Source: Burkholderiales bacterium
GTDB lineage: Bacteria; Pseudomonadota; Gammaproteobacteria; Burkholderiales; SG8-39
NCBI GenBank assembly: GCA_014860355.1
Contig: JACZJV010000050.1
Coordinates: 14,733-78,732, forward strand
Direction: 5' to 3'
Length of the DNA: 64,000 bases
Positions 30,049 through 63,894 of this stretch are shown here, piece after piece. Positions within the stretch are counted from its first letter, which is position 1, and every line of letters starts with the position of its first letter. The notes beneath the pieces were generated by a model, which was not told the DNA's origin, did no database searches, and was given only the letters and a program-made list of their open reading frames with translations. The position numbers and the translations under genes are program-made.

Positions 30049-30050
30049 GT

Positions 30051-48619: not shown

Positions 48620-49435
48620 TCAACGCGCGTCGTTGAGCCTCCAGTCGTAATCGAGGAATTCGAGACCGTAGTCGCCGCGCCGGATCCGCGCCTGCGCCTG
48701 CGGCGTATCTGCCAGGCGCTCGGCGTATCTGGCGAATGTCGCCGTGAGCGAGGCGAAGCCGGCGTGGCCCTGCTCGAAGTCCTTGCCGTACCAGTCGAAC
48801 AGCTCGGATACGAGCAGGGTGTTGCGCTCGGCATCGTAGCGGTTGCGCGTACGGTCGGAGAGGAAGCGGCGCATGCCCTCTTCCAGTTGCGCATCCAGCC
48901 GCTCGGCGCTATAGGCCTCGTCGCGCAGCATCGGGCAGCCGATCGAGGCGCACACCAGCGCAGCGTGGATGCGCGGTTCGTCGAAGGCGCCGGGGGCGCG
49001 GATCATGCCCTGTTCGATGTCGTCGAGATGGCGTTCGCCGCCGAGCAGGACGAAGAACCTGCGTTTCCACGGCGACTGGAACACGCTGCCCAGATCATTG
49101 ATCGACGCGAGCTCCGGGTACCTGGAGAGGATCAGTTCGACGGTGTAGGCGTTATAGGCGTTGATCAGAAACGCGAGCCGCTGCTGCCTGGTCCAGCCGC
49201 GGTACTCCGCCATGCTTACGGCGGACAGGCCCTCCAGATAGGCCTTGAGCCGCTGGTGCTCGGCCTGTACGCCGGCATAGCGCAGCTGCGATGCATTGCC
49301 GCCCTGAATCAGCACCACATTGTCTTTCAGCAGCGCGGTCCACGCCGCGTGACTGTGATCGAAAGCGTGTGCCGTGGCGGCCGTGAGCATGAGGACGAGG
49401 GCGGCGAGCCAGCGCTTCGAGGCTGGCGCCTTCAT
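48620..49435 (-). CDS. secreted DUF547 domain protein
   Basis: ATG 49435 overlaps the upstream stop (ATGA). Signal peptide MKAPASKRWLAALVLMLTAATAHA. INAYNA and HAALVCASIGCP motifs of DUF547. Confidence 0.75.
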   Translation of the reverse strand: MKAPASKRWLAALVLMLTAATAHAFDHSHAAWTALLKDNVVLIQGGNASQLRYAGVQAEHQRLKAYLEGLSAVSMAEYRGWTRQQRLAFLINAYNAYTVELILSRYPELASINDLGSVFQSPWKRRFFVLLGGERHLDDIEQGMIRAPGAFDEPRIHAALVCASIGCPMLRDEAYSAERLDAQLEEGMRRFLSDRTRNRYDAERNTLLVSELFDWYGKDFEQGHAGFASLTATFARYAERLADTPQAQARIRRGDYGLEFLDYDWRLNDAR

Positions 49436-51576
49436 CCGCGCCGCCAGGCGTGGAAGCGCTCCACCCATTCGAGCAGCTTTTGCGGCGCGTGCGCCTTCTT
49501 CCACACGCCCGCCGCATACTTGTTCGCTTCCGCCATGGTCGGGTAGATATGGATGGTGCCGAGGATCTTGTTGAGCCCGATGCCGTGGCGCATCGCCAGC
49601 ACGTATTCGGCGATCAGCTCGCCGGCATGCTCGCCGACGATGGTGACGCCGAGTATGCGGTCCTTTCCGGGTACGGTGAGCACCTTGACGAAGCCGTGGG
49701 CCTCGCCATCGGCGATTGCGCGGTCCAGGTCGTCGATGCCGTAGATGGTCACTTCGTAGGGAATCGCGCGCTCCTTCGCCTCGGTCTCGTTCAGCCCCAC
49801 CCGCGCCGCTTCCGGGTCGACGAAAGTGGCCCAGGGTATGACTGAATAATCGGCGCGGAATTTCTTGAACGGATCGAACAGCGCATTGACCGCCGCGTAC
49901 CAGGCCTGATGCGCCGCCGTATGGGTGAACTGATACGGCCCGGCGACGTCGCCGGCGGCATAGATGTTGGGAAATCTGGTCTGCAGGAATTCGTTCGTCT
50001 CGACCGTGCGCTGCGCCGCGATGCCCAGCTCCTCCAGACCGTAGCCTTGCAGATTCGCGACCCGGCCGACGGCAACCAGCAGCGCGTCGAACGGGATGCG
50101 CACGTCCGCGCCCGCATGTTCGGCGACGAGGATCTTTTCGCCGCCTTCGACGACGAACTGCTTCGCCTTGTGATTGACCAGGACGGCTATGCCTTCGGCG
50201 CGAAAGTGCTGCGCCACCAGTTCGGACACCTCCGGATCCTCGCGGATGAGGATGCGCGGCGCCATTTCCACCTGCGTGACTTCGGCGCCGAGCCGGGCAA
50301 AGGTCTGGGTCAGCTCCGAGCCGATCGGGCCGCCGCCCAGCACCACCAGGCGCCGCGGCAACTGGCGCAGGTCCCACACGGTATCGGAGGTGAGATAGCC
50401 GACTTCCTCGATGCCCGGAATCGGCGGAACGAATGGGCGCGCGCCGGCGGCGATGACGATGGAACGCGTGCTCAGGCGCTCGCGCCCGCCGTCATTGCGC
50501 GTGATTTCCACCTCCCAGGGCGAGACGATTTTTGCCGTGCCTTCGATCACCTCCACGCCGAGTCCGGTATAGCGCTCGGCAGAGTCGTGGGGCGCTACGG
50601 TTTTGATGACGCGTTGCACGCGCTCCATCACCTCGGCAAAGTCAAACTCCGCCCGCGCGTCGCGGATGCCGAATTCAGGCGAACGGCGCATGTGGGCAAG
50701 CAGCCTGGCCGAGCGAATCAGGGCTTTTGAAGGCACGCAACCGGTATTCAGGCAGTCCCCGCCCAGTTTGTGCTTCTCCACCAGCGTGACCTTGGCCTTT
50801 ACCGCGGCAGCGATATACGAGGTGACCAGCCCTGCCGACCCGGCGCCGATCACGATCAGGTTGCGCTCGTAGCGCCGCGGTCTGTTCCAGCCGGCATAGA
50901 CCTTGTTCGTGCGCAGGCGCTCGGTGATTTTCTTGGCCAGCAGCGGAAAAATCCCCAGCAGCGCAAACGACGCCACAATCGCGGGCGAGAGGATGCCGGA
51001 CAAGGACTCGATTTTCGCCAGCTGCGTGCCGGCGTTCACATACACGATCGTGCCCAGCAGCATGCCGGCCTGGCTGACCCAGTAAAAGGTGCGCGTGCGG
51101 ATCGCCGTGAGCCCCATCACCAGGTTGATGACGAAGAAGGGGAACAGCGGCACCAGGCGCAGCGCGAGCAGATAGAAGCCGCCTTCGCGCTCGATGCCGG
51201 CATTGACGGCCTGCAAGCGCTCGCCGAATCGCTGTTGCACCCAGTCGCGCAGCAGGAAGCGCGAGGCGAGGAAGGCGAGCGTCGCGCCTGCCGTGGAAGC
51301 GAATGACACCAGGACCGTTCCCCAGAGCAGGCCGAAAACCGCACCGCCTGCAAGCGTCATTACCGCCGCGCCGGGCAGGGAAAGACCGGTGATCGCGACG
51401 TAGGCGAGGAAGTAGAACAGCGCCGCTTTTGCCGGCTGCGCCGCGCGCCAGGTTTCGATGGCAGCCTGCTGGCTCTTGAAAAAATCCAGACTCAGGTAGC
51501 GACCCAGATCGAAGAAGTAATAGCCGAGCGCGACGCCCAGCAGCACGGCAATCAGTACGAGGCGTTGACGGTTCAT
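49432..51576 (-). CDS. bifunctional TVP38/TMEM64 (DedA-related) membrane protein / class I pyridine nucleotide-disulfide oxidoreductase
   Basis: 714 aa. The N-terminal ~230 aa hold 5-6 TM segments of TVP38 type. The remainder has IGAGSAGL, the redox-active disulfide GGDCLNTGCVPSK, and the C-terminal HIYPTMAE His-Glu motif (mercuric/lipoamide reductase-like). Confidence 0.85.
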   Translation of the reverse strand: MNRQRLVLIAVLLGVALGYYFFDLGRYLSLDFFKSQQAAIETWRAAQPAKAALFYFLAYVAITGLSLPGAAVMTLAGGAVFGLLWGTVLVSFASTAGATLAFLASRFLLRDWVQQRFGERLQAVNAGIEREGGFYLLALRLVPLFPFFVINLVMGLTAIRTRTFYWVSQAGMLLGTIVYVNAGTQLAKIESLSGILSPAIVASFALLGIFPLLAKKITERLRTNKVYAGWNRPRRYERNLIVIGAGSAGLVTSYIAAAVKAKVTLVEKHKLGGDCLNTGCVPSKALIRSARLLAHMRRSPEFGIRDARAEFDFAEVMERVQRVIKTVAPHDSAERYTGLGVEVIEGTAKIVSPWEVEITRNDGGRERLSTRSIVIAAGARPFVPPIPGIEEVGYLTSDTVWDLRQLPRRLVVLGGGPIGSELTQTFARLGAEVTQVEMAPRILIREDPEVSELVAQHFRAEGIAVLVNHKAKQFVVEGGEKILVAEHAGADVRIPFDALLVAVGRVANLQGYGLEELGIAAQRTVETNEFLQTRFPNIYAAGDVAGPYQFTHTAAHQAWYAAVNALFDPFKKFRADYSVIPWATFVDPEAARVGLNETEAKERAIPYEVTIYGIDDLDRAIADGEAHGFVKVLTVPGKDRILGVTIVGEHAGELIAEYVLAMRHGIGLNKILGTIHIYPTMAEANKYAAGVWKKAHAPQKLLEWVERFHAWRRG

Positions 51577-51691
51577 CCGGATTCCAGGTCAGGGTTTTAT
51601 AGGGGGGTAGGTAGCTTGCATTGGTCGCGCGAAACCCCCGAATTCTTACGCGCTAGTCCGCCCCCGTTTCGAGGGCCCCCGAAAGAAATGC

Positions 51692-52660
51692 TCACTTTGC
51701 GCGCAAATCGCTGTATTGGGACATTTCGGCGATCAATCGGGCGATGGCCGCGCGCTCGGCCGCCGGGTCGACTTCGTGGCGCCGCGCTATTACCGCGGCT
51801 TGCAGTTCGGCTAGCCAGTCCGGGTCGCGCTGGGCGCGCGCGAGTTGCGCCGCCAGCGCGGCCTCGTCCGCGTATGGGTAGTAGCCCGGATAGTCTGCGC
51901 CTAGCAGGCCGATATTGCCGGGGATGGCCGAGGCGATGACGGGCACGCCCGCGGCTATCGCTTCGGATACGACGTGCGCCCCGCCTTCCATGCGGCTCGA
52001 GATGACCATCGCGTGACTGCGCGCCAGCCAGCGCATCGCGCCTGCATGATCGAGTTCACCCAGCCAGCGATAGCGTGGCTCGGCGCGCATCAGCGCGCGT
52101 GCCTGCTGCCCCATTTCAGCCGTCATCGCCTGGCCCAGCTGCACCACGCGGATCGCGCTCTGCGGCAGCTGCGCCAGCGCGAGGGCGGCGCGAAACGGGT
52201 CTTTCTCCTCGCGCAAATGGCCGATCACGGTGACCAGAAAAAAGCTGCGCGGCGGAGTTTGCCGCCGCAGGGCGCGCTGCGACTGGAAAATTACGCTGGT
52301 TTTCGCGCGCTGCGCCGCGCCCAGTTCGTCCAGGCCCAGAGGCTGCAGCACCACCATGCGGTCAGCGAGGCCTAGCGACGCGCGCGCGTCGGCGTCGCTG
52401 CGTATGTCGCGGTACAAATCGGTGCCGGTGAGCACCAGGACCAAAGGACGCTGCGGGTGCGTCGACTTCCACGCCTTCATCGCCGCGTGGCTGCGGCGCG
52501 CATGCAGGGCAATGAGCAGCTCGCAATCGCGCCCGTCCCAATCGAGCGCAAGCTGCGTCACGTGCCCGAGCGCGCGCAAATGCCGCGCCCAGCGCAGCGC
52601 GGTATTGCGGTTGCCCTGGCGCGAACCCGGCGCGGCGGGCGTTACAATGAGTATGCGCAT
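51692..52660 (-). CDS. senB: GT-B glycosyltransferase of the selenosugar synthase (SenB) type
   Basis: 322 aa. The N-terminus MRILIVTPAAPGSRQGNRNTALRWARHL matches my memory of the selenium-neighbourhood glycosyltransferase family later named SenB. A GT1 C-terminal E-x7-E-like region is present (SRMEGGAHVVSEAIAAGVPV). Divergent from an EgtB-like gene. Confidence 0.75.
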   Translation of the reverse strand: MRILIVTPAAPGSRQGNRNTALRWARHLRALGHVTQLALDWDGRDCELLIALHARRSHAAMKAWKSTHPQRPLVLVLTGTDLYRDIRSDADARASLGLADRMVVLQPLGLDELGAAQRAKTSVIFQSQRALRRQTPPRSFFLVTVIGHLREEKDPFRAALALAQLPQSAIRVVQLGQAMTAEMGQQARALMRAEPRYRWLGELDHAGAMRWLARSHAMVISSRMEGGAHVVSEAIAAGVPVIASAIPGNIGLLGADYPGYYPYADEAALAAQLARAQRDPDWLAELQAAVIARRHEVDPAAERAAIARLIAEMSQYSDLRAK

Positions 52661-52736: not shown

Positions 52737-53939
52737 ATGAGAGACAATATAGCAGAGCCGTCGCCGCGCGCCGGCTGGCCCGATTTTTCGCTCTACCGGC
52801 CGCATCCGCCGGCAGCCCGACTGCGCGCCTGGCTGGTCGAGGCGCACGACCTGAGCTCGTTGCTGACGCAGTTCCTCGGCGACGAAACCATTGTCGTTCC
52901 GCTGCTGCCGATCGTCAATCCGCCGCTGTGGGAACTCGGTCACATCGCCTGGTTCCAGGAGTTCTGGCTGCATCGCGGCGGGGATTTTTCCCGGCCCTCG
53001 ATGCTGCGCGACGCGGATCGCTGGTATGACTCGGCGCGCGTCGCGCACGACACGCGTTGGTCCCTGGACCTGCCCGACGCACAGGCGACGCGGGGCTATG
53101 TCGAAGGAGTGTATAAGCGTACGCTGGCTTTGTTCGAGCGCGAATCACCGGGCGACGCGCGCGCGTACTTTACCCAGCTGGCGATCTTTCACCAGGACAT
53201 GCACAACGAGGCCTTCTGCCACATGTGGCAGACGCTCAGTTACCGGATGCCGCTAGCCTGGGCGCAAGCGGATGCAGCGGACGCAGCCGATCTGGAGCTT
53301 CCCGCAGGCAGGTTTGCGCTCGGGGCTAGCCGCGGCTCGGGCTTCGTATTCGACAACGAAAAATGGGCGCACGAGGTGGACTTGCGCGACTATGCGATTG
53401 CGCGCCGTGCGGTGAACAACGCCGAGTACCGCGCATTCGTCGAAGCGGGCGGCTACGCCCGGCGCGAATTATGGAGCGAGGCCGGTTGGGCCATGCGCGA
53501 GCGTTTGGCACTGGCGCATCCGCGCTACTGGAGGCGCGCTGCGCAGGGCTGGTCGGTGCGCCGCTTCGATCGCTGGGTGCCGCTGGCGGAGCACGAACCG
53601 GTGATGCACGTGAGTTGGTATGAGGCCGAGGCCTATTGCGCCTGGGCCGGCCGGCGCCTGCCGAGCGAGGCGGAATGGGAACGCGCCGCGGCAACCTGCC
53701 CCGATCGCTTTGACAGCGGCCGGGTCTGGGAATGGACTTCCAGCCGTTTCGCTCCCTATCCGGGCTTCACTGCCGACCCCTACAAGGAATACTCGGAGCC
53801 CTGGTTTGCCGACGAGCATCGCGTGTTGCGCGGCGGCAGCTTCGCCACGCCGCCGCGGCTGCTGCGCAGGACCTGGCGCAATTTCTACGCGCCCGCGCGA
53901 GCGGACATGTTCTGCGGATTTCGCAGCTGCGCGCTCTGA
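52737..53939 (+). CDS. senA: EgtB-like DinB_2 + FGE-sulfatase-domain C-S/C-Se bond-forming enzyme (selenoneine synthase SenA type)
   Basis: In-frame ATG 52737; the ORF part upstream overlaps senB. The iron triad is WELGHIAWF plus FHQDMHNE (H, HxxxHxE). The FGE-like C-terminal domain has RLPSEAEWE and RGGSF. Confidence 0.75.
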   Translation: MRDNIAEPSPRAGWPDFSLYRPHPPAARLRAWLVEAHDLSSLLTQFLGDETIVVPLLPIVNPPLWELGHIAWFQEFWLHRGGDFSRPSMLRDADRWYDSARVAHDTRWSLDLPDAQATRGYVEGVYKRTLALFERESPGDARAYFTQLAIFHQDMHNEAFCHMWQTLSYRMPLAWAQADAADAADLELPAGRFALGASRGSGFVFDNEKWAHEVDLRDYAIARRAVNNAEYRAFVEAGGYARRELWSEAGWAMRERLALAHPRYWRRAAQGWSVRRFDRWVPLAEHEPVMHVSWYEAEAYCAWAGRRLPSEAEWERAAATCPDRFDSGRVWEWTSSRFAPYPGFTADPYKEYSEPWFADEHRVLRGGSFATPPRLLRRTWRNFYAPARADMFCGFRSCAL

Positions 53940-53942
53940 AAT

Positions 53943-54078: not shown

Positions 54079-54936
54079 ATGAGCGCTATCTTCCGCATTT
54101 TGGCCCTTGTGCTGTTCGGCTTGTCCTTTGCGCATGGCACTGCAGCCCAGGGCGTGCTCAGGGTATCCGCCATACCCGACGAAGCGCCGACCGAGCTGCA
54201 GCGCAAGTTCAAGCCGCTGGGCGAATATCTCGCGCAGGAAACCGGCATGAAGGTCGAGTTCACCCCGGTGAGCGACTACGCCGCAGTGGTCGAATCGCTG
54301 GCCACGAAGAAACTCGACCTCGCCTGGCTGGGGGGATTCACCTTCGTACAGACCAAGCTGCGCACCAAGGGCAGCGCCATACCCATCGTGCAGCGCGCCG
54401 AGGACGAAGTATTCACCAGCCGCTTCATCGTGCCCTCCGGCAGCAAGGCCAAGACCCTGGCCGATCTCAAGGGCAAGACCTTTGCCTTCGGTTCGCCCTC
54501 ATCGACCTCCGGACACCTGATGCCGCGCTATTTCCTGCTGCAGGCGGGCATCGATCCGGACAAGGATTTCAAGAACGTTGCGTTCTCGGGCGCGCACGAT
54601 GCGACGGTGGCATTCGTGGCCGGCGGCAAGGCCGAAGCCGGCGTGCTCAACGCCTCGGTCTGGGACAAGCTGGTGCAGGCAAAGAATCCCAACGCGCTGA
54701 AGGTCAGGGTGCTCGCGACCACGCCGCCCTATTTCGACTACAACTGGACCGTGCGCGGCGACCTGGACCCGGCCCTGGTGAAAAAGCTCACCGCCGCCTT
54801 TCTCAAGCTCGACCCGGCCAATCCGGCGGATAAGGCGATACTGGACCTGCAGCGCGCATCCAAGTTCATTCCGACCAAGGCGTCGAACTACGACGGCATC
54901 GAGAATGCCGCCAAATCGGCCGGCCTGATCAAATGA
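54079..54936 (+). CDS. PhnD-family ABC transporter periplasmic substrate-binding protein
   Basis: Internal ATG; signal peptide MSAIFRILALVLFGLSFAHGTAAQ. PhnD-type fold markers (LRVSAIPDE, FGSPSSTSGHLMPR). Confidence 0.8.
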   Translation: MSAIFRILALVLFGLSFAHGTAAQGVLRVSAIPDEAPTELQRKFKPLGEYLAQETGMKVEFTPVSDYAAVVESLATKKLDLAWLGGFTFVQTKLRTKGSAIPIVQRAEDEVFTSRFIVPSGSKAKTLADLKGKTFAFGSPSSTSGHLMPRYFLLQAGIDPDKDFKNVAFSGAHDATVAFVAGGKAEAGVLNASVWDKLVQAKNPNALKVRVLATTPPYFDYNWTVRGDLDPALVKKLTAAFLKLDPANPADKAILDLQRASKFIPTKASNYDGIENAAKSAGLIK

Positions 54937-54977
54937 CCCGACGCAGGTCTGCGCGCTGAATCGATGGAGCGCCTTGC

Positions 54978-55847: not shown

Positions 55848-55859
55848 TTCCCTTGCGCC

Positions 55860-56696: not shown

Positions 56697-56724
56697 GCAC
56701 GGCAGCTCGCCTCGAGCTGAGCCC

Positions 56725-57537
56725 GTGAGCACCGCGACTTTTGCCGAGCGGCGCGCGGCCATGGGCTTTTGCCTGCAGTGCTGGCTGACGCTGTTGCTGC
56801 TGGCCTTGCTCGTCTGGGCCAGCTTCGCCTATCTGGCGCTGGATTTGTCGCGCTTGTTCAGCCTGGAATCGGGCCGCGGCATGCTGCAGTTCATCCTGCG
56901 CTTTTTTCCGCCCGATACCAGCGCGCAGTTCCTGCGCAAGATCGCCGGGGCCACGCTCGAAACCCTGGCCATATCCGCGATCGGCACGCTGCTCGCCGCG
57001 GGCGCCGGACTGCTGCTGGCGCTGCCGGCGGCGGGTCGTCTGGGTCCGGTGTTCAAAGCGCTGACCCGCTTTCTCCTCAACGCCCTGCGCTCGGTGCCCG
57101 AACTCGTGTGGGCGGCATTGATGGTGCTGGCTGCAGGGCTGGGGCCTTTCGCCGGCACGCTCGCCCTGGCATTGCACACCTCGGGGGTGCTGGGGCGACT
57201 CTACGCGGAGAGCCTGGAAAATGCGCCGCCCGAGCCGGCACAGTCTCTGGTGGAAAGCGGTGCGCCGCCGGCGCTGGCCTTCGGCTACGCCACGCTGCCC
57301 TTGATCGCGCCGCAGCTGCTCTCCTACAGCCTGTACCGCTGGGAGATGAACATCCGCATGGCCACGGTGCTGGGCTTCGTCGGCGCCGGCGGCCTGGGGC
57401 AGATGCTCTACTACGAGCTGTCGCTGCTGCACGAAGCGCAGGCCTCGAGCGTCATCTTCGCCATGCTCGCATTGGTGGTGTTCGTCGACGCGGCGAGCGC
57501 CTGGGTGCGCCGCCGCCAGATGCGCGCGGGCGGATGA
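56725..57537 (+). CDS. phnE: PhnE-type ABC transporter permease (second)
   Basis: GTG 56725 (ATG 56761 is the alternative). Paralogous to the preceding permease (VPELVWAALMVL). Confidence 0.8.
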   Translation: MSTATFAERRAAMGFCLQCWLTLLLLALLVWASFAYLALDLSRLFSLESGRGMLQFILRFFPPDTSAQFLRKIAGATLETLAISAIGTLLAAGAGLLLALPAAGRLGPVFKALTRFLLNALRSVPELVWAALMVLAAGLGPFAGTLALALHTSGVLGRLYAESLENAPPEPAQSLVESGAPPALAFGYATLPLIAPQLLSYSLYRWEMNIRMATVLGFVGAGGLGQMLYYELSLLHEAQASSVIFAMLALVVFVDAASAWVRRRQMRAGG

Positions 57538-57555: not shown

Positions 57556-58776
57556 CTAATCCGCGAGGCGGGTCGGGATGCTGATTTCGGCGTGCAGCGT
57601 TCGATGTACCGGACACTTATTGGAGATCTCCAGCAGCTTGGCGCGCTGCTCCTCGCTCAAGGGGCCTTCCAGCCGTATCAGCCGCTCGATGCGGTCGACC
57701 TTGCCCTCCCTGGTTTCGCATTCCGCGCAATCTGCCGCGTGAATTTTGTCGTGTCTTAGCTCGACAGTGGCGCGCTCCAGCGGATAGCCCTTGAGATCGG
57801 CATACATGCGCATGGTCATCGAGGTGCACGCGCCGAGACCGGCGAGGAGCAGGTCGTAGGGCGAAAGTCCGCTGTCCAGGCCGCCGGCCGCGACCGGCTC
57901 GTCCGCGCGGATCACATGCTGCCCGACGAGCACGCGCTGACTGAATTTGCCCTCGCGGGTTTCCTGCACCACCACCTTGCCGGGCACCGCAGACGCAGCG
58001 GTGGCCGCCGTGGCGCCGAGGTAGCGCATCGCCCAGGATGCCAGGATGCTGCCGGTGTACAGCGCGTCCTCGCGCCGCGACAGCATGTGGTCGGCCGGAT
58101 CGAGGGAAACAAAACTCTTCGGGTGTTTCGCCGTGGTAAAGATCCGCGTTGCATTGTCGATGCCGACTACGCTGTCGCGCGGCGTATGCATGACCAGCAG
58201 CGCCTTGCCCATGTGCGCGAGTTTGTCGCCGAGCTTGCTGCCCGAGATGTCGTCCAGGAACTGCCTGCGTATGCGAAAGGGACGCTCGCCGATGTCGACT
58301 TCGGCCTCGCCTTCGCGCTCGATCGCGGACTTGTCCTTGATCAGCTGCAGCACATGCGCCGGATCGATAGGCGAGCCTATGGTCGCCACCGCGACCGCTT
58401 CGGGCACGCGCGCCGCTGCGGCGAGGACCGCGGTGCCGCCGAGGCTGTGGCCGACCAGGAGTGCGGGCGCGCTATAGTGCTGGCGCAGGTAGTCTGCTGC
58501 AGACACCAGGTCCTCCAGGTTCGAAGAAAAATTCGTGCTGGCAAAATCCCCGCCGCTGCCGCCCAGACCGGTGAAGTCGAAGCGCAGCACCGCGATGCCG
58601 CGCTCGGCCAGCGCCGCACTGACGTAAGTCGCGGCCTTGCTTTCCTTGGAGCAGGTAAAGCAATGCGCGAACAGGGCGTAGGCGATCGGCGCCGCTGACG
58701 GCGGCAGGTCGAGGCGCGCGGCGAGCAGGGCGCCTATGGCGCCGGGAAAGGAAAGCGTAAGCGACTGTATGGTCAT
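57556..58776 (-). CDS. bifunctional alpha/beta hydrolase / OsmC family protein
   Basis: 406 aa. The N-terminal half has the nucleophile elbow GHSLGG. The C-terminal ~140 aa has OsmC-type Cys pairs (GLGACTSMT ... NKCPVH). Confidence 0.85.
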   Translation of the reverse strand: MTIQSLTLSFPGAIGALLAARLDLPPSAAPIAYALFAHCFTCSKESKAATYVSAALAERGIAVLRFDFTGLGGSGGDFASTNFSSNLEDLVSAADYLRQHYSAPALLVGHSLGGTAVLAAAARVPEAVAVATIGSPIDPAHVLQLIKDKSAIEREGEAEVDIGERPFRIRRQFLDDISGSKLGDKLAHMGKALLVMHTPRDSVVGIDNATRIFTTAKHPKSFVSLDPADHMLSRREDALYTGSILASWAMRYLGATAATAASAVPGKVVVQETREGKFSQRVLVGQHVIRADEPVAAGGLDSGLSPYDLLLAGLGACTSMTMRMYADLKGYPLERATVELRHDKIHAADCAECETREGKVDRIERLIRLEGPLSEEQRAKLLEISNKCPVHRTLHAEISIPTRLAD

Positions 58777-58819: not shown

Positions 58820-59794
58820 CTAGATCGCCGCGTGGCACAGCGCGAACCAGTCGTTCGCGTCGGTCCACGCCTGGATGCGGTCAAAGCCGGCGCGCGCCAG
58901 CAGCGTCTTGAAATCAGTCAGCGCGTACTTGTAGCTGTTCTCCGTATGGATGCGCTGGCCCTGGCGAAATGCGCGTGTGCCGCCGGGCCAGCGCACGCTG
59001 AGGTCGTGCCTGGCCTCCAGGTGCATTTCGATGCGCGAGGCTGCGGTGTTGAACTGCGCCCGGTGGCGCCAGTCGCGCACGGCGAAATCGCTGCCGATCA
59101 GCGCATTCACGTTGTTGAGCAGGTTCAGGTTGAATGCCGCGGTGACCCCGAGCGCGTCGTCGTAGGCAGTCTGCAACAGGGTTTCGGACTTGAGCAGATC
59201 GACGCCGATCAGCAGGCCGCCGCCATGGGGGCCTGCGCACTGCGCCCGTATGCCGGCAAGGAAAGCGAGCGCCTGCTCCGGCGTGAAGTTGCCGATCGAT
59301 GAGCCGGGGTAGAAGAACAGGCGCTTGTCGCGGCTGACCGCATCGGGCAGGCGCAGGCCCGAGGAGAAATCGGCGCCGATGCCGAGCATTTCCATCTGCG
59401 GAAACTCACGCTGCAGCTGCGACATCGACTGCCGCAGATAATCCACGGAGATGTCCACTGCGACATACTGGCTCGGCCGCAGCGCAGCAAACAGGCTGCG
59501 CGCCTTTTCGCAATTGCCCGCGCCGAGGTCGATCAGCGCCGGCGCGGGGCCGGCGGCGCGCGCCACGCTGTCGCGGCAGGCTAGGAGCAGCGCTTTTTCC
59601 GTGCGCGTCGGATAGTATTCGGGCAGTTCGGTAATGGCATCGAACAGGCGCGAGCCCAGCGCGCCATAGAGGTGCTTGAACGACACCCATGGCGCGTCTG
59701 CCATCAGTCCCGCCACGATCGCGGCGGCCTCCGCGCCCGGCGCAAGCGCATCGGCGGGAAACGAAAAGAATGTCGGGCCGGATTGCAGCGTCAT
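58820..59794 (-). CDS. egtD: L-histidine N(alpha)-methyltransferase (hercynine synthase)
   Basis: 324 aa. FDAITELPEYYPTRTE, DLGAGN, YDDALGVTAAFNLNLL, RIEMHLEA and ENSYKY blocks match mycobacterial EgtD as I recall it. Confidence 0.9.
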   Translation of the reverse strand: MTLQSGPTFFSFPADALAPGAEAAAIVAGLMADAPWVSFKHLYGALGSRLFDAITELPEYYPTRTEKALLLACRDSVARAAGPAPALIDLGAGNCEKARSLFAALRPSQYVAVDISVDYLRQSMSQLQREFPQMEMLGIGADFSSGLRLPDAVSRDKRLFFYPGSSIGNFTPEQALAFLAGIRAQCAGPHGGGLLIGVDLLKSETLLQTAYDDALGVTAAFNLNLLNNVNALIGSDFAVRDWRHRAQFNTAASRIEMHLEARHDLSVRWPGGTRAFRQGQRIHTENSYKYALTDFKTLLARAGFDRIQAWTDANDWFALCHAAI

Positions 59795-59862
59795 GGTTTT
59801 GACCTCGTTTCGATACGCATCGTTTGCCTCAGCAGCGGCAATAGTATCAACTGCGGCGGACG

Positions 59863-60825
59863 TTAGCGGTCCCGCTTCAAAGAACTGCCGTCTCCGGCAT
59901 GGAACACCGCGGTGTGCGGGTTGAACGCGTACCAGGCGAACCAGTAGCCGACCACCGCCGGAAGCTGCCGCCCATCGGCGGCGTGGGCCGTGGCGCGCGC
60001 AGCCTGGCGGTCGAAGCGGATGGTCAGCGCAGTGTCACCTATCCGGTCGGACACCACGCCGGTCGTTTTCCCCAATTCGACGAAGGGATACGCCTTGGTC
60101 TGTTCGCCTATCCTGATACCGAGCACCCGTTCCTTGGGATGAAAGCCCGCAGAGCGGAACGCCACCGGGAACATGATGTCCTCGCTGCTCTCATATCCGG
60201 CGTAGGGGTCGCGCGCGTAAGGTCGCGTCTGCCCGGTATTGGTAGTCAGAACCCCGGTCGCCGGGTGTAAGCTGCGCCAGTCGGCCCAGCTGGTATGGGT
60301 CAGCGGCAGCAGCTTCAGGCGCCGACCTTTCTTCGGGCCGCTGACCGCCTGCGCCAGCAACTGCGACCACAGCGACTGTGTCTGCCGGTCGTACAGCAGC
60401 ACGTCGCTGTTGTAGAGCAGTCCGGAGACGCCGAAGCTGAGCACCTGACCATCGACGCTGGCATCGAAGGCCGCGCCGGTGCCGCACAGCGGACAGAAAG
60501 TGATCACCACCGCCTCCGCGCCGAAACGGTCGTTGACCACTTCGTGCCAGTTGAGTATGCGCACCGGATAGGCGCGCGCGATGCCCTTGCGCACCATGCC
60601 GAGTACGGCGTCATCGTCGCGCAGGAAAGTCGCAAGCCCTGCCTCGGTGAATTCGGGCTGGTCGATCGCGGGTATGCCGTCCCTGGGCGGTCCGCCTGCG
60701 TGGATCTCGTCGCTGGCGATCAATGATCCCTGCAGGTCGAAGCCGTTCATCTGCTGCGCGTAGGAGAGGACCGGCGCGAGGCCGGCGAGCAGGGCGAAGT
60801 ATGATACCAGGCGTCGAAATCTCAT
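59863..60825 (-). CDS. secreted DUF3179 domain protein
   Basis: Internal ATG (MRFRRLVSYFALLAGLAPVLSYAQQ signal peptide). PRDGIPAIDQP, FCPLCGTG and LLYNSDVLLYDRQT motifs of DUF3179. Confidence 0.8.
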   Translation of the reverse strand: MRFRRLVSYFALLAGLAPVLSYAQQMNGFDLQGSLIASDEIHAGGPPRDGIPAIDQPEFTEAGLATFLRDDDAVLGMVRKGIARAYPVRILNWHEVVNDRFGAEAVVITFCPLCGTGAAFDASVDGQVLSFGVSGLLYNSDVLLYDRQTQSLWSQLLAQAVSGPKKGRRLKLLPLTHTSWADWRSLHPATGVLTTNTGQTRPYARDPYAGYESSEDIMFPVAFRSAGFHPKERVLGIRIGEQTKAYPFVELGKTTGVVSDRIGDTALTIRFDRQAARATAHAADGRQLPAVVGYWFAWYAFNPHTAVFHAGDGSSLKRDR

Positions 60826-60937
60826 TCGTCCTCCAGACACATGTCGGGTGCGGATCTGTTTGTCGCAACCAGGCTAGCGTTTCTTACGCCGACTGAGGGT
60901 GCAGGTAATCCGGACCCAGCCGGTTGATGCAATGGCC

Positions 60938-61612
60938 CTAGGTAGGCGGCCGGCGCAACCGGTCGCGCACGAGTTTCACCGCGAACGGGATCAGGGTAAT
61001 GGCACCCAGTGCCAGCACCGATATCATGATCTGATCGGACTCACCGGTGGCCATCTCGCCGCCGAAATGGGCCAGCAGAAAGCTCGCCGGTACGATGCCG
61101 ATGAGCGTCGCGAGCGCGAAGCGCCAGAACGAGAGCACCGTCAGGCCCGCGGCATAGCTCACAATATCGAAGGATATGAACGGCAGGAGACGGCTGACCA
61201 GCACGATACCCATGAGCGTGTTTTGCGATCCGAGCAGGCCCAAGGACAATCGCTCGCCGAACCAGCGCCGCATGGTGTCCCCGCCGAGCCAGCGTGCCAG
61301 GCCGAAGGCGGTGATCGCGCCGATCTCCGCGCCCACGAGCACATAAAGCGTGCCCCAGACATGGCCATACGCGGCGCCGGCAGCCATGGCGATGGGTGCA
61401 CTCGGAATCGGGCTCACCATGATTGCCAGCACCATCAGGCCGATCACCAGCAGCGGGCCCCATGCCCCCAGGCGCGCAATGTGATCGTGCAGTTCGGCCC
61501 GGTTCAGGATGGTCGCCAAGGCGCCGGTTTCGTGCAACAGCCAGTAGGTCGCTGCCAGCAGCGCCAGCAGCGCGAGTACGGCGAGCAGTTTGAACCGCAG
61601 CGACTGCGTCAC
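60938..61612 (-). CDS. TVP38/TMEM64 family (DedA-related) membrane protein
   Basis: GTG 61612 overlaps the SelD-fusion stop (GTGA). 224 aa, 5-6 TM segments, MVSPIPSAPIAMAAGAAYG core. The rest of the 758-aa track ORF is antisense to the SelD fusion gene. Confidence 0.75.
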   Translation of the reverse strand: MTQSLRFKLLAVLALLALLAATYWLLHETGALATILNRAELHDHIARLGAWGPLLVIGLMVLAIMVSPIPSAPIAMAAGAAYGHVWGTLYVLVGAEIGAITAFGLARWLGGDTMRRWFGERLSLGLLGSQNTLMGIVLVSRLLPFISFDIVSYAAGLTVLSFWRFALATLIGIVPASFLLAHFGGEMATGESDQIMISVLALGAITLIPFAVKLVRDRLRRPPT

Positions 61613-63894
61613 GCGCCCAGCCTGAGGACGATAGGCGCCAGCGCTTCGCCCTGCGCGAGCACCCGGCCGATGGCCGCAGCATGCGTGTATCCGAGCGCGT
61701 GCAGGGCGCCGAGGCAGGCCTCGGCGCGCTCCCCGGGGACGCTGGCGAGCAGCCCACCTGCTGTCTGCGGGTCGAAGATCAGCGCATAGCGCGGATGGCT
61801 CAGCGCCTCCTGCTGGTTGCGCAGCGCGCGGCGCAGGCGCACGTTTGCCGGCTGCAGCGAACTCAGGATGCCGGCGGCGCTGGTTTGCTCCGCGCCTTCC
61901 AGTACGGGCAGCGACGCGAGGTCGAGTTCCGCGTCCACGCCCGAGGGGCGTGTCATTTCGACCAGGTGTCCGAGCAAACCGAAGCCGGTCAGATCGGTGC
62001 AGGCGGTCGCGCCGTGCTCGCGCAGACACTGCGCGCCCAGGCGGTTCGATTGGCACATCGAGGCGAGCGCCGCATCGATCCAGCGGCCACGGGCCGCGAG
62101 CAGGGCATGCGCCGCAAACAGCGTACCGGTGCCGATAGGCTTGGTCAGGATCAGGACGTCGCCGGCTCGCATGCCGCTCTTGCGCAGCACCGGCGCCAGG
62201 TTCTCGTCTATCAAGCCGTTCACGGCAAAGCCCAGCGCCAGTTCCTTGCCCTCGCCGGTGTGCCCGCCCACGAGCGCGCAGCCGGCGTCGTTGAGCACTT
62301 CGATCGCGCCCGACATCATCTGAAACAGCAGGTCCTCCTGCTTGGCCTCCAGGCCGGCGGGCACGGTGACGATCGCGGTGGCCGACTGCGCCTCGGCGCC
62401 CATCGCGTATATGTCGCCCAGGGCGTGATTGGCCGCGACCTTGCCGAAGATGTAGGGATCGTCGATGAAGGCGCGGAAGAAATCCACCGTGTGTACCATG
62501 GCCTTGCCCGGCGGCACGCGCACCACCGCCGCATCGTCGGGCGCATGCAGTCCGATGAGCACGTCGTCGCGCGCTACCGGGACTAGCGCGCCGAGCGCGC
62601 GCGAGAGCACGGTGGCGCCGACTTTCGCGCCGCAGCCGCCGCAGCGCATCGCCACTGCCGAGATCGCCTGCGCGGCCTCCTCCTGGTCGAGTTTGATCGG
62701 CGAGGGCGTCGCATGGGCGGGCCCGGCCTGCATTGCGGGAAACTGCTCGAATTTGTGCATGAAGCGGCGGTCGATCCAGTCCTTCCAGCGCCACACCCAG
62801 TCGCCGCGCAATGCCAGCGCAGCGCGCGAGGCCACGGCGTAGCGATCGCCGGTGCTGATCAGTGCCAGCCAGCGTGTTTGCGGGCGGTAGGGCCTCAATG
62901 GCCTGCCTTCCACAGCGCGGCGCAGATTCTCTGCGAGCGGCTTGCCCTGGCGCACGGCGAATACCCCGGCTTTCTCCAACGGCTGGTTCACCATGCCGGC
63001 GATATCGCCCGCGGCAAACACCTTTGGATCGCTCACGGTCTGCAGCGTGTCGCCGACCTGAATGAATCCATCCGCATCGAGTGCGAGGCCGGTTCCGGCG
63101 AGCCAGGGTGCGCCGCCGGCACGCGTGACCCAGACGATCTCGTCGGCATCCACCGACATGCCGGCCGTAGTCTGCAGGCGCGTCGCGGATACCTGGTTGA
63201 CCTCGGCCTTGCAATGCAGTTCGACACCGCGCTCGGCCAGCACGCGTTCGAATGTACGGCGCACCGAAGCATTGTGGGTTTTCAGGATCACCGGGCCGCG
63301 CGTCAGCAGGTGGAAGCTGAGTTCGTCCGGATTGCGCCCAGCCGCGCGCAATTCCTTGCGCAATCGGTATTGCATGGCCAGAGTCAACTCGACCCCGCCG
63401 GCGCCGCCGCCGACCACGGCGATGCGCGTGGCCCCGGCGTGCCGGCGCACGCGCTCGAGCAGCAGCAGCCAGCGCTGGTTGAATCCATTGATCGGTTTGA
63501 CCGGCACTGCGTGCTCGCTCGCACCCGCCACATCGGCCATTTGCGGCGTGGAGCCGATGTTGATCGACAGGTAGTCGTAGGGCACCGGCGGACGATTGCG
63601 GCAGAGGACTTTGCCCGCGTCGCGGTCCAGGCCCAGTGCTTCATCGTGAAAGTAGCGCGCGCCGGCAAAGCGAGCCAGCCTCGACAGATCGATGTGGACT
63701 TCGTCGTAGCTGTAGTGTCCGGCGATGTACCCCGGCAGCATGCCGGAGTAGGGTGTGTGGGTGTCGCGGCAGATGAGCGTCAGGCGGACCCCGGGCACGG
63801 GATGCATGCCGAAGCGCTTGAGCACGACTACATGGCTGTGGCCACCGCCGACCAGGACGATATCCCTGAGTACCGGCTGATCCGGCGATAGCAT
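61609..63894 (-). CDS. selD: bifunctional NDH-2-like FAD/NAD(P) oxidoreductase / selenide, water dikinase
   Basis: 761 aa. The N-terminal ~400 aa has VLVGGGHSHVV and VVGGGAGGVE dinucleotide folds. The C-terminal part has SelD motifs MRCGGCGAKVG (Cys form, no in-frame TGA), GDIYAMGA and LVGGHTGEG. Confidence 0.9.
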   Translation of the reverse strand: MLSPDQPVLRDIVLVGGGHSHVVVLKRFGMHPVPGVRLTLICRDTHTPYSGMLPGYIAGHYSYDEVHIDLSRLARFAGARYFHDEALGLDRDAGKVLCRNRPPVPYDYLSINIGSTPQMADVAGASEHAVPVKPINGFNQRWLLLLERVRRHAGATRIAVVGGGAGGVELTLAMQYRLRKELRAAGRNPDELSFHLLTRGPVILKTHNASVRRTFERVLAERGVELHCKAEVNQVSATRLQTTAGMSVDADEIVWVTRAGGAPWLAGTGLALDADGFIQVGDTLQTVSDPKVFAAGDIAGMVNQPLEKAGVFAVRQGKPLAENLRRAVEGRPLRPYRPQTRWLALISTGDRYAVASRAALALRGDWVWRWKDWIDRRFMHKFEQFPAMQAGPAHATPSPIKLDQEEAAQAISAVAMRCGGCGAKVGATVLSRALGALVPVARDDVLIGLHAPDDAAVVRVPPGKAMVHTVDFFRAFIDDPYIFGKVAANHALGDIYAMGAEAQSATAIVTVPAGLEAKQEDLLFQMMSGAIEVLNDAGCALVGGHTGEGKELALGFAVNGLIDENLAPVLRKSGMRAGDVLILTKPIGTGTLFAAHALLAARGRWIDAALASMCQSNRLGAQCLREHGATACTDLTGFGLLGHLVEMTRPSGVDAELDLASLPVLEGAEQTSAAGILSSLQPANVRLRRALRNQQEALSHPRYALIFDPQTAGGLLASVPGERAEACLGALHALGYTHAAAIGRVLAQGEALAPIVLRLGA

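Follow-up and report, generated by a model that had tools for sequence, protein, structure and literature searches.

The locus is best read as a variant of the known selenoneine pathway and not as a new selenium supply chain, since the stress island to which its accessory genes belong also occurs without sen genes. We hold with modest confidence that it is a composite, in which a complete selenoneine pathway was assembled within a pre-existing oxidative-stress island of the sigmaE/RpoE2 type. The pathway part would comprise senB, senA, egtD, an ABC importer of the TIGR04553 type and, as the selenophosphate source, an NDH-like::SelD fusion. The island part would comprise an ECF sigma factor with a 67-aa ZAS anti-sigma factor of the Neisseria sigmaE/MseR or Haemophilus RpoE2/HrsE type, the NDH-like::SelD gene followed by TVP38, DUF3179, and a TVP38::disulfide reductase followed by DUF547, and in relatives would also include AhpC, Trx-CcdA, ArsS and MsrAB.

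Gene content of the island

The window is the whole stretch of 64,000 nucleotides that was analyzed; its source genome is that of an uncultured member of the Burkholderiales from soil/freshwater. All ORFs described in a sequence-only reading of this DNA are present (13/13) at the positions and on the strands given in Table 1 (ORF check), with the domain content it had assigned (Pfam and NCBIfam profiles). The two gene couplings it reported are translational overlaps that can be read directly in the sequence (ATGA, 49435-49432; GTGA, 61612-61609). GC content is equal in the island and its flanks, and no mobile-element signatures or boundary repeats were found at the island. The searches also agree with the reading that no selA-, selB-, selC- or selU-type gene accompanies the locus: ARAGORN found no tRNA-Sec in the window, tblastn with an annotated mnmH (selU) as query gave no match there, and SelA and SelB are absent among 16 scanned ORFs outside the island (3 flanking genes, 3 overlapping ORFs without a match and 10 further ORFs), a set that leaves out about 17 ORFs in 1-43 kb. 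Neither ArsS nor the transferases GT2 and DUF2064 were found in the window. Throughout, the analysis is based on metagenome assemblies of uncultured organisms, with relatives viewed as loci of ±10 kb.

Table 1. Genes and predicted promoters of the locus, in window coordinates
Feature	Position	Strand	Evidence
DUF547 protein	48620-49435	-	Pfam PF04784, 87 bits
TVP38/VTT::class-I pyridine-nucleotide disulfide reductase	49432-51576	-	Pfam + NCBIfam
Predicted ECF promoter 1	51621..51649	-	motif search
senB, selenosugar synthase	51692-52660	-	TIGR04348 equivalog, 403 bits vs cut-off 300
senA, selenoneine synthase	52737-53939	+	NF041186 equivalog, 504 bits vs 420
PhnD-type binding protein	54079-54936	+	TIGR04553, 373 bits vs 250
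ABC ATPase	54978-55847	+	part of PhnD/C/E/E-type importer 54079-57537
PhnE-type permeases, two	55860-56696 and 56725-57537	+	part of same PhnD/C/E/E-type importer
Alpha/beta-hydrolase::OsmC	57556-58776	-	Pfam + NCBIfam
egtD	58820-59794	-	TIGR03438 equivalog, 362 bits vs 291
DUF3179 protein	59863-60825	-	PF11376, 307 bits
Predicted ECF promoter 2	60859..60887	-	motif search
Stand-alone TVP38/VTT (DedA superfamily)	60938-61612	-	PF09335, 84 bits
NDH-2-like::SelD fusion	61609-63894	-	TIGR03169, 528 bits vs 310; TIGR00476 selD, 298 bits vs 125
zf-HC2/ZAS anti-sigma gene, 3' end (last 10 codons 63999-63970, plus stop)	63967..64000	-	tblastn

Selenoneine pathway genes

SenA, SenB, EgtD, SelD and the binding protein, whose family carries the name "putative selenate ABC transporter substrate-binding protein", all score above NCBI curated family cut-offs. 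Because SenA, SenB, EgtD and SelD pass these cut-offs, the full selenoneine route proposed earlier is encoded, with genes for selenophosphate, selenosugar and hercynine synthesis and for C-Se coupling. The best PDB matches of SenB are the V. paradoxus SenB structures (E 3e-67 to 1e-64), and those of SenA are V. paradoxus SenA (E 6e-98) followed by OvsA (3e-67) and EgtB (2e-57). All seven functionally assigned SenA residues listed in PMC11237966 are kept (7/7; the equivalents of His71, His167, His171, Tyr363, Asn63, Glu68 and Arg120). The locus shares with V. paradoxus senCBA (Kayrouz et al. 2022, 10.1101/2022.04.13.486033) orthologous SenA and SenB, their catalytic residues and the divergent transcription of senA and senB. 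It differs in that the SenC-type SelD is replaced by an NDH-like::SelD of another SelD lineage 9 kb away, that five extra genes are interleaved (TVP38::reductase, DUF547, TVP38, DUF3179 and hydrolase::OsmC), that two predicted ECF promoters lie within it and that some close relatives have no senA in ±10 kb.

Profile placement of the glycosyltransferase and EgtB-like proteins confirmed their membership in SenB and SenA; for SelD, an assignment as SenC ortholog was rejected. The protein is of the known NDH-2-like::SelD fusion type with a CxxC motif, and its SelD is 32-36% identical to the SenC-type SelD (motif GCGCK) of 19 other sen loci and 40-44% identical to fusion SelDs adjoining mnmH. It consists of an NDH-2-like flavoprotein (residues 11-382) and SelD (residues 416-749) with the active-site loop C418-GG-C421-GAK. 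Such fusions have been known since 2008 (Zhang et al. 2008, PMC2398784; Mariotti et al. 2015, PMC4561486), their CxxC motif has likewise been described, and the present one shares with them the N-terminal COG1252/TIGR03169 flavoprotein domain and the Cys-type SelD with a CxxC loop. The known fusions have an assumed role in selenocysteine or selenouridine synthesis and adjoin mnmH in other bacteria, among them Rhodobacterales, whereas the fusion here follows an ECF sigma/anti-sigma pair, has TVP38 coupled to it and belongs to a sen locus. Its start/stop overlap with TVP38 recurs in loci L100 and L005-L007, and the fusion is also found in sen-less islands of sister lineages. In view of these sen-less islands and of the mnmH neighborhoods, small-molecule selenium chemistry, earlier given as the best reason for SelD in this window, is a candidate explanation. 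Stand-alone homologs of the NDH-like domain (36-43% identical) occur in the same clusters as island genes. Canonical SenC is retained in L011, whose SenB is 76% identical.

Predicted ECF promoters and the sigma/anti-sigma pair

An ECF motif, whose pattern came from other loci and was then refined in knowledge of the window sites, has two matches in the 64 kb, both strands searched, where 0.00 are expected. These head TVP38::reductase-DUF547 and DUF3179-egtD-hydrolase::OsmC. Promoter 1 (GTAAGAAT-N14-CGACCAA) lies in the gap after senB and ends 45 nt 5' of the TVP38::reductase start codon; promoter 2 (GTAAGAAA-N14-CGACAAA) ends 34 nt 5' of the DUF3179 start codon. L001-L007 and L009 share the first site, and L010 has it with a single mismatch. 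The second has an orthologous site in L100 and another in L009, where DUF3179 is lost to a remnant and hydrolase::OsmC stands directly behind the promoter. Across all fetched loci (1.66 Mb) the motif has 18 matches, every one 5' of an island gene (TVP38::reductase, DUF3179, Trx-CcdA, AhpC, ArsS, msrB or bufA1), and there are none in 73 canonical sen loci. The -35 box agrees with an independent published consensus, that of meningococcal sigmaE (GTAAGGTT), and both sites are predicted to be ECF promoters of the sigmaE/RpoE2 type. No copy is detectable directly 5' of senB, senA, the ABC genes or NDH::SelD, so that egtD is the only pathway gene predicted in the regulon.

The window end cuts an anti-sigma gene whose product ends in IPEVLEKDAD. 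By tblastn this is a 100% match to the C-terminal end of the 67-aa L100 anti-sigma factor, and the island therefore continues past the window end. The ECF sigma gene is located beyond the window; it precedes the anti-sigma gene in the closest relative, and the order ECF sigma, anti-sigma, NDH::SelD is found in L100 (SelD 96% identical) and L007. The L100 anti-sigma factor carries Cys8 and H34-x3-C38-x2-C41, with the spacing of NMB2145 and the length of HrsE. Neisseria sigmaE/MseR and H. influenzae RpoE2/HrsE (PMC2893595, PMC3240639, PMC7907618) have in common with the island the short cytoplasmic ZAS anti-sigma factor (67 aa) with Cys...H-x3-C-x2-C spacing and the -35 box GTAAGG. Two members of their regulons, msrAB and an operon of the DoxX/bufferin type, lie under the same motif in L095, L096 and L101. 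The regulons described so far have few members (msrAB, the doxX operon, a transporter) and, unlike the island, are without SelD, egtD, TVP38::reductase, DUF547, DUF3179 and ArsS; the literature covered describes no link of this sigma family to selenium or ergothioneine-type antioxidants.

Accessory proteins

The TVP38::reductase has a TVP38/VTT membrane domain in about residues 1-225 and, in residues 239-692, a flavoprotein disulfide reductase with the redox-active motif C275-LNTG-C280. It belongs to the widespread family [quoted passage not shown]. Assignment as a mercuric reductase was rejected because the NmerA domain and the C-terminal Cys pair are absent. Fold and CxxxxC redox center are shared with RclA, hypothiocyanous-acid reductase and PRK06370-type enzymes, and these enzymes are stress-induced (by reactive chlorine) in known cases. 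The island reductase, however, is uniquely joined to a TVP38 membrane domain and scores far under the equivalog cut-offs (RclA 218 vs 740, Har 237 vs 650, MerA 379 vs 454) and under that of the PRK06370 type (502 bits vs 620). DUF547 and DUF3179 had been described as secreted proteins with Cys motifs, and inspection of their translations agrees: both have Sec-type signal peptides, as does the ABC binding protein, with CASIGC (C162-x4-C167) in DUF547 and CPLC (C111-PL-C114) in DUF3179. The DUF547 Cys pair is invariant in 5 homologs from Beta- and Gammaproteobacteria; in 8 DUF3179 homologs, Cys111 is invariant and Cys114 variable. The DUF547 start and the stop codon of the reductase gene 5' of it overlap, and this tight pairing recurs in Acinetobacter, Pseudoalteromonas and Catenovulum. 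DUF3179 homologs often adjoin thioredoxin-type genes in other loci. The hydrolase::OsmC protein combines an alpha/beta-hydrolase with a GHSLGG nucleophile elbow and an OsmC-type thiol peroxidase domain, with solved relatives 9wo1 (E 3e-119) and 5cml (E 9e-88).

Distribution and alternative readings

We surveyed senB ±10 kb in 80 genome SenB loci and in metagenome loci L001-L003. Of the linkage expected between accessory and sen genes, the importer's part stood: importer homologs adjoin sen genes in 14/80 genome loci (binding proteins 56-89% identical), an association already mentioned in the selenoneine discovery paper. The other accessory genes occur near senB only in a Burkholderiales clade with SenB at least 80% identical (7/80 genome loci plus L001-L003), and in 0/73 other species' betaproteobacterial sen loci, even at E<=1e-4. 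Near-identical or closely related island genes also cluster in loci that have no sen gene in the surrounding 10 kb (L101, L102 and L094-L096), together with ArsS, MsrAB, AhpC, bufferin genes and the ECF sigma/67-aa ZAS anti-sigma pair. L102 holds NDH::SelD, TVP38, DUF3179, TVP38::reductase, ArsS, AhpC and ECF sigma, and in L101 sigma/anti-sigma and NDH::SelD lie beside bufferin genes, ArsS, TVP38::reductase, GT2 and DUF2064. TVP38::reductases 80-82% identical are found in Rhodocyclales 3' of MsrB-MsrA or ArsS, and island genes cluster without SelD in still other loci.

The accessory genes had been read as a selenoneine-specific supply chain, with uptake by the ABC importer and TVP38, reduction to selenide by the flavoproteins and periplasmic Cys proteins, and redox balance by OsmC. 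We consider this unlikely, and in that form it is not supported, because linkage to sen genes is not conserved outside one narrow clade; the sen-less and SelD-less clusters and the two gene sets under predicted oxidative-stress promoters count against it as well. The reconstituted pathway of the discovery paper requires only SenA/B/C and EgtD, which suffice experimentally, the TVP38 domains have no Cys in their translations and belong to a subfamily without a demonstrated transport substrate, and conserved Cys residues are absent from the NDH-like domain. In its favor are the coupling of SelD to TVP38, the covalent joining of the NDH-like domain to SelD, a TVP38 gene overlapping the last ABC permease gene in L002 and the reported tie of a DedA-family protein to selenite uptake in Ralstonia metallidurans. 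TVP38::reductase also follows senB in every clade locus extending that far, including loci without senA. The two may therefore cooperate functionally, and this invariant adjacency, which weighs against the composite reading, would be equally expected from a dedicated partnership. In canonical locus L020 a stand-alone PRK06370-type reductase lies directly 3' of SenC, a hint that the pathway itself may require a reductase of this kind.

Less probable still is a stress-inducible organoselenium core (NDH::SelD, TVP38, SenB and TVP38::reductase, with ArsS nearby) to which senA and egtD are optional, and whose primary product could be the selenosugar, either as such or linked to membrane or lipid, or else a compound made by ArsS. 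L002/L003 and L007 keep SelD, SenB and TVP38::reductase and have no senA or egtD within the retrieved ±10 kb; the left flank conserved in L002, L005, L006, L007 and L010 marks an orthologous locus of variable content, but senA may be located elsewhere in those genomes. ArsS (TIGR04167, 457 bits) is near SelD in two loci, at a distance of two genes in L002 and of 7.6 kb in L100. TVP38::reductase, DUF547 and a TIGR03169-like flavoprotein recur in the "arsenosugar biosynthesis" or "rSAM-selenodomain-associated" clusters (TIGR04167, TIGR04282, TIGR04283), which also hold type II HAD, CcdA/Trx and ECF sigma. Elsewhere TVP38::reductase travels with TIGR04282/04283 transferases, CDP-alcohol phosphatidyltransferase and sterol-desaturase-family genes, and DedA-superfamily proteins are described as lipid flippases or scramblases. 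Against this reading, ArsS chemistry with selenium is not known, and the window lacks ArsS and both transferases, with SenB, SenA and EgtD filling the biosynthetic role; senA and egtD are intact, with every SenA catalytic residue kept. Least probable is a chance gathering of unrelated redox and sen genes at a variable chromosomal spot, which the mosaic gene content that close relatives show at this locus, the uniform GC content and the lack of boundary signatures would fit, but which is at odds with the position of egtD between DUF3179 and hydrolase::OsmC (gaps of 68 and 43 nt) in a unit predicted to be ECF-driven, with SelD being both an island gene and required by SenB, and with the senB/reductase adjacency.

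Proposed role of the composite locus

Family membership and experimentally established orthologs support a route in which SelD makes selenophosphate, from which SenB forms a selenosugar with a UDP-sugar, and SenA joins this selenosugar to the hercynine made by EgtD to give selenoneine. Under the composite reading, and in place of the canonical stand-alone SenC, the NDH-like domain may pass electrons or selenide to the SelD CxxC loop, and the ABC system may take in a selenium oxyanion. Oxidative or thiol stress would cause the anti-sigma factor to free sigma and both predicted promoters to fire, inducing the TVP38::reductase-DUF547 and DUF3179-egtD-hydrolase::OsmC units. Because egtD lies in a unit predicted to be sigma-induced, hercynine supply would be stress-induced, and so would a peroxidase and generic reductases of oxidants and of disulfides, perhaps diselenides among them. 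The unassigned genes would then be co-regulated stress-defense partners of an antioxidant product rather than dedicated steps of selenium uptake or reduction.

Gene content and borders of the locus

ORF calling returned the same 13 genes, on the same strands, that the sequence-only reading had listed for the island, and all of its domain assignments were confirmed by Pfam and NCBIfam. The encoded proteins comprise a TIGR04348 glycosyltransferase, an FGE-sulfatase/DinB_2 protein, a Methyltransf_33 protein, a Pyr_redox_2::AIRS/AIRS_C fusion, a DUF547 protein, a VTT/TVP38 domain fused to a class-I pyridine-nucleotide disulfide reductase (TVP38::reductase), a PhnD/C/E/E ABC importer, an alpha/beta-hydrolase::OsmC fusion, a DUF3179 protein and a second VTT/TVP38 protein. 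Both start/stop overlaps, ATGA and GTGA, can be read in the sequence, and the signal peptides and cysteine motifs of the DUF547 and DUF3179 proteins are visible, as judged by eye, in their translations. The left border is genuine, with adjoining genes for fumarylacetoacetate hydrolase, PHB depolymerase and penicillin amidase. The right border is artificial: the window ends within a zf-HC2 anti-sigma gene, of which only the last 10 codons are included, so the island extends past the window end. Its content past position 64000 is inferred from two loci of the same narrow clade (L007 and L002) and from the closest relative by SelD (L100). The GC content of the island equals that of its flanks, and a repeat search found neither meaningful direct or inverted repeats, flanking ones included, nor island boundaries. 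Across the entire window, Rfam returned zero families at gathering score. A scan for sigma-70 promoters and intrinsic terminators gave nothing exceeding shuffled expectation. The source is an uncultured Burkholderiales bacterium; the close homologues all come from metagenome-assembled Burkholderiales or Betaproteobacteria, and the comparative data are all metagenome assemblies.

Several features lie outside the island. The tRNA-Gly(GCC) reported by ARAGORN falls within a protein-coding ORF, has no Rfam tRNA counterpart at gathering score, and is probably a false call. Selenium-dependent molybdenum hydroxylases have been described as the "third" SelD-dependent trait (PMC2432076), and a molybdenum hydroxylase of the xanthine dehydrogenase family is encoded in the window. 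A protein with three rhodanese domains is also encoded; a rhodanese protein is encoded immediately in front of ArsS in L100.

Features of the window and of the loci compared with it; bit scores are given against the cut-off of each model
Feature	Locus	Position	Strand	Details
Rhodanese protein	window	698-2299	+	533 aa, three rhodanese domains
TPP_enzyme_N-domain ORF	window	26854-27417	-	
tRNA-Gly(GCC) call	window	26987-27055	-	within the TPP_enzyme_N-domain ORF
Molybdenum hydroxylase	window	27751-31423	-	large (MoCoBD_1/2, a/b hammerhead) and FAD-binding subunits; ~30 kb from SelD
Lower-GC stretch	window	32000-38000		GC 0.61 vs ~0.65 elsewhere; includes TctA transporter gene
Part of the lower-GC stretch	window	35.1-37.2 kb		no convincing ORF
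Island	window	48620-63894		13 ORFs
zf-HC2 anti-sigma gene	window	63999-63970	-	last 10 codons
Predicted ECF promoter 1	window			45 nt upstream of TVP38::reductase ATG, in the gap behind senB
Predicted ECF promoter 2	window			34 nt upstream of DUF3179 ATG
SenA	window			NF041186 equivalog, 504 vs 420 bits (NCBIfam)
SenB	window			TIGR04348 equivalog, 403 vs 300 bits (NCBIfam)
EgtD	window			TIGR03438 equivalog, 362 vs 291 bits (NCBIfam)
NDH-like::SelD	window			TIGR03169 "Nterm_to_SelD", 528 vs 310 bits; SelD domain TIGR00476, 298 vs 125 bits
ABC binding protein	window			TIGR04553 "putative selenate ABC transporter substrate-binding protein" ("hypothetical equivalog" model only), 373 vs 250 bits
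Promoter, DUF3179 remnant, hydrolase::OsmC	L009	3468-3830		
PRK06370-type reductase behind SenC	L020	2865-5379	-	NF004992, 764 vs 629 bits
TVP38::reductase and following genes	L094 (Accumulibacter)	12227-15562		
DUF3179 protein	L093 (Thiothrix plasmid)	6323-7601		54% identical to window's
Protein behind ArsS	L002	1562-2536		
Protein behind ArsS	L100	2397-3338		
Protein behind ArsS	L101	3672-4628		
Bufferin-type RiPP operon	L101	5689-8162	-	
Bufferin-type RiPP operon	L087	3476-5891		

SenA, SenB and EgtD accompanied by a SelD of another lineage

The glycosyltransferase and the EgtB-like protein had been proposed to be SenB and SenA, and this assignment is borne out, as both exceed curated equivalog cut-offs and have V. 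paradoxus structures as their nearest. Among solved structures, V. paradoxus SenA is the closest to the window's SenA (E 6e-98), with OvsA and EgtB ranking behind it, and the window protein's score against the EgtB model TIGR03440 (294 bits) is under the cut-off of 360; for SenB, the PDB returned nothing but V. paradoxus SenB entries (lowest E 3e-67). The functional positions of V. paradoxus SenA comprise an iron triad (H71, H167, H171), Y363 as the catalytic residue, and N63, E68 and R120, which bind the selenosugar (PMC11237966), and 7/7 are identical in the window protein in a phmmer alignment to 8ryz. Judged by these models and alignments, SenA, SenB and EgtD are members of the sen pathway. 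A conserved operator in the senA-senB intergenic region was considered and rejected, conservation being weak outside the coding ends.

By the same kind of evidence, membership does not extend to SenC, and the window SelD is assigned to another lineage. Identity between its SelD domain and the SenC-type SelDs flanking senA in 19 other betaproteobacterial sen loci is only 32-36%, its loop reads CGGCGAK rather than GCGCK, it carries a 400-aa N-terminal flavoprotein, and it lies 9 kb from senB. The domain is 40-44% identical to alphaproteobacterial fusion SelDs adjoining mnmH, the tRNA 2-selenouridine synthase gene. NDH-like::SelD fusions were described as a class in 2008 and 2015, the SelD loop always having CxxC (PMC2398784); the window protein has both the N-terminal TIGR03169 domain and the CxxC, within an AIRS/AIRS_C domain whose Cys/Lys loop is C418-G-G-C421-G-A-K424. 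Because L011, a sen locus with SenB 76% identical to the window's, retains canonical SenC, the replacement appears to be recent and clade-specific. The structures nearest to the NDH-like domain are NDH-2/YjlD and FSP1, and no cysteine is invariant across 11 homologues; a thiol mechanism like that of sulfide:quinone reductase (SQR) is therefore unlikely in this domain.

Accessory genes recur in islands without sen genes

The sequence-only reading treated the genes of unassigned role as a selenium-specific system for uptake, reduction and redox maintenance, a claim that comparative evidence leaves mostly unsupported. SenB homologue alignment yielded 80 betaproteobacterial loci, from as many species-level genomes, whose SenB shares 47-85% identity with the window's; these were searched with the window proteins by tblastn. 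The TVP38::reductase, DUF547, TVP38, DUF3179, hydrolase, OsmC and NDH-like domains are confined to loci in which SenB is at least 80% identical, and linkage to sen genes in the remaining loci is 0/73, even at E<=1e-4 and without a coverage filter. One notable exception in kind among the 73 is L020, a sen locus with canonical SenC, in which a stand-alone PRK06370-type reductase is encoded on the same strand directly behind SenC, an independent case of this enzyme type accompanying sen genes.

Loci of the narrow clade have mosaic content at one orthologous chromosomal site, with a left flank common to L002, L005, L006, L007 and L010. The layout of L006 is as in the window, L001 and L009 add CcdA and thioredoxin, L004 and L005 are without DUF3179 and hydrolase::OsmC, and L005 and L007 are without the ABC genes. 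SelD, SenB and TVP38::reductase are kept in L002/L003 and L007, which have no senA or egtD within the retrieved ±10 kb. Only two gene pairs are invariant in the clade: TVP38::reductase behind senB, and TVP38 behind SelD.

Further contexts of island genes were gathered through plasmid/chromid tblastn and nine contig neighborhoods. Across Alpha-, Beta- and Gammaproteobacteria, typical neighbors of the TVP38::reductase family are tightly coupled DUF547, ArsS, TIGR04282/TIGR04283 transferases, a stand-alone homologue of the NDH-like domain, type II HAD, CcdA/thioredoxin, CDP-alcohol phosphatidyltransferase, and an ECF sigma factor with a zf-HC2 anti-sigma. Rhodocyclales TVP38::reductases that are 80-82% identical lie either behind ArsS (Accumulibacter) or behind MsrB-MsrA, the latter type having GT2, DUF2064 and an NDH-like flavoprotein behind the reductase and an ECF sigma/anti-sigma pair in front. 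Two long contigs encode NDH::SelD proteins 82% identical to the window's and have no sen genes within 10 kb. One (L102) carries TVP38, DUF3179, NDH::SelD, MsrA, TVP38::reductase, PhnD-type ABC, ArsS, AhpC and ECF sigma genes; the other (L101) has sigma/anti-sigma genes followed by NDH::SelD, beside a bufferin operon, ArsS, TVP38::reductase, GT2 and DUF2064. In L100, whose SelD is 96% identical, the order is ArsS, a 313-aa protein, type II HAD, AhpC, ECF sigma, a 67-aa anti-sigma, NDH::SelD, TVP38, DUF3179 and EgtD. Since TVP38::reductase, DUF547 and others cluster without sen genes, the unassigned genes are best read as members of an independent island, which in the window's clade would have acquired senB, senA, egtD, the TIGR04553 importer and hydrolase::OsmC. 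ArsS is found near SelD in L002, L100, L101 and L102; by tblastn, ArsS (TIGR04167) and the TIGR04282 and TIGR04283 transferases are absent from the window.

Other genes recur around these islands. A protein of 313-324 aa, without a Pfam or NCBIfam match and absent from the window, is always found behind ArsS in L002, L100 and L101, with 50-73% identity between them. A bufferin-type RiPP operon (BufA1/DUF2282, MbnB/DUF692, HvfC/DUF2063, DoxX) immediately precedes ArsS and TVP38::reductase in L101 and in L087, another fetched locus, and carries the same ECF promoter motif as the island genes; CopA, CueR and HMA genes are close to it in L101. In the Thiothrix plasmid locus, the DUF3179 gene neighbors genes for a "GDCCVxC domain-containing (seleno)protein", DUF4395 and a large thioredoxin-domain protein.

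Properties of the importer and TVP38 proteins

The association of the importer with sen genes is not new, and the selenate substrate named by the model that its binding protein matches is putative. The TVP38::reductase has 714 aa and just two cysteines (275, 280), and belongs to a widespread [quoted passage not shown] family with members ~60% identical in Alpha-, Beta- and Gammaproteobacteria. Identity as MerA was rejected, as the reductase scores 379 bits against a cut-off of 454 and has neither the NmerA domain nor the C-terminal cysteine pair. In the Accumulibacter locus, the genes behind TVP38::reductase encode a set of enzymes that generates NADPH (6-phosphogluconate dehydrogenase, 6-phosphogluconolactonase and glucose-6-phosphate dehydrogenase), as would fit a reductase that depends on NADPH. 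For selenium uptake by the TVP38 proteins, as had been proposed, the sole support is one older report on DedA and selenite, cited second-hand; their translated TVP38 domains have no cysteines, and the DedA subfamily has no known substrate.

Predicted ECF sigma control of two gene units

Island genes share an upstream motif, GTAAG-R-R-N15-[C/A]GAC-N-AA with fixed spacing, drawn from msrB (L095/L096), ArsS (L094), AhpC (L100) and bufA1 (L101). Over both strands of the 64-kb window it has exactly 2 matches against 0.00 expected, for a pattern finalized with the window sites in view; allowing one mismatch added none. The upstream regions of NDH::SelD, senA, senB and the binding-protein gene hold no copy of the motif, also when one mismatch is allowed. 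All fetched loci together (1.66 Mb) hold 18 matches, all upstream of island genes, with 0 in the 73 canonical sen loci. Both window sites are conserved in orthologous loci; the TVP38::reductase site is kept in eight clade loci and, with one mismatch, in a ninth. In L009, the ECF promoter precedes a decayed C-terminal DUF3179 remnant, in which an in-frame TGA stands in place of the window's TGG, and hydrolase::OsmC comes next, an arrangement indicating that recent gene loss has re-wired the promoter to hydrolase::OsmC.

The meningococcal sigmaE -35 consensus, GTAAGGTT, is of the GTAAGG type (PMC2893595) and matches the predicted promoters independently. A full ECF sigma/anti-sigma pair is seen in L100 and L007. 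The L100 anti-sigma has 67 aa, Cys8 and H34-x3-C38-x2-C41, a spacing equal to that of meningococcal NMB2145/MseR (Cys4, H30-x3-C34-x2-C37). The ZAS anti-sigma that restrains H. influenzae RpoE2 is cytoplasmic and 67 aa long; this sigma factor responds to both HOCl and H2O2, and msrAB and a doxX operon belong to its regulon. We infer two units putatively under a sigmaE/RpoE2-type factor, TVP38::reductase-DUF547 and DUF3179-egtD-hydrolase::OsmC, the latter with internal gaps of 68 and 43 nt; NDH::SelD-TVP38 would lie directly behind the sigma/anti-sigma genes.

Discussion

Only since 2022 has the biosynthesis of selenoneine been known, in the form of a three-gene cassette. At the family level, SelD makes selenophosphate, SenB forms the selenosugar, EgtD makes hercynine, and SenA couples selenosugar and hercynine into selenoneine. 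In the window, the ABC importer would bring in a selenium oxyanion and the fused flavoprotein would serve the SelD CxxC loop. Under oxidative or thiol stress, the sigma factor would induce hercynine synthesis and a membrane-tethered disulfide reductase, together with an esterase::peroxidase and two periplasmic proteins, one with the Cx4C motif and one of the DUF3179 type. This arrangement suggests an antioxidant made on demand. Compared with canonical senCBA, the window has a replaced SelD, five island genes interleaved with the sen genes, and predicted ECF promoters inside the locus; compared with known sigmaE/RpoE2 regulons, it adds SelD, egtD and uncharacterized redox genes; unlike ArsS clusters, it has neither ArsS nor the two transferases. 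Among the papers in the library searched, none links selenoneine to TVP38, DUF547, DUF3179 or this sigmaE/RpoE2-type family, which does not prove that no such link exists.

The TVP38::reductase may be a generic oxidant/disulfide reductase of the regulon. Because its position behind senB is invariant, also in senA-less loci, a role specific to selenosugar or selenoneine diselenides is kept open. A broader alternative, which we consider unlikely, is that the sigmaE/RpoE2 island is a dedicated, stress-inducible organoselenium system. In such a system, NDH-like::SelD would supply the selenophosphate and generate the selenide for it, TVP38::reductase, together with periplasmic DUF547, would be tethered to the membrane and reduce diselenides or selenenyl-sulfides with specificity for the selenosugar or selenoneine, and the biosynthetic genes would form an exchangeable cassette of SenB alone, SenB with SenA and EgtD, or ArsS with TIGR04282/04283 transferases. 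If so, some clusters annotated "arsenosugar" would in fact handle selenium. If the accessory genes prove to be generic stress genes, the locus would represent a tidy recruitment of a pathway into a regulon and nothing further.

The locus ties the sen pathway to ArsS-type islands and their functionally unassigned accessory genes (TVP38::reductase, DUF547, TIGR03169 flavoprotein), and the apparent natural replacement of SenC gives the long-enigmatic NDH-like::SelD fusion a concrete pathway context. The predicted promoters would place hercynine synthesis and uncharacterized redox proteins under an oxidative-stress sigma of the sigmaE/RpoE2 type. An antioxidant selenium pathway apparently recruited into an oxidative-stress regulon is worth experiment, as is the senB/TVP38::reductase pair, which, found also in senA-less loci, is a candidate for the missing diselenide/selenosugar reductase.
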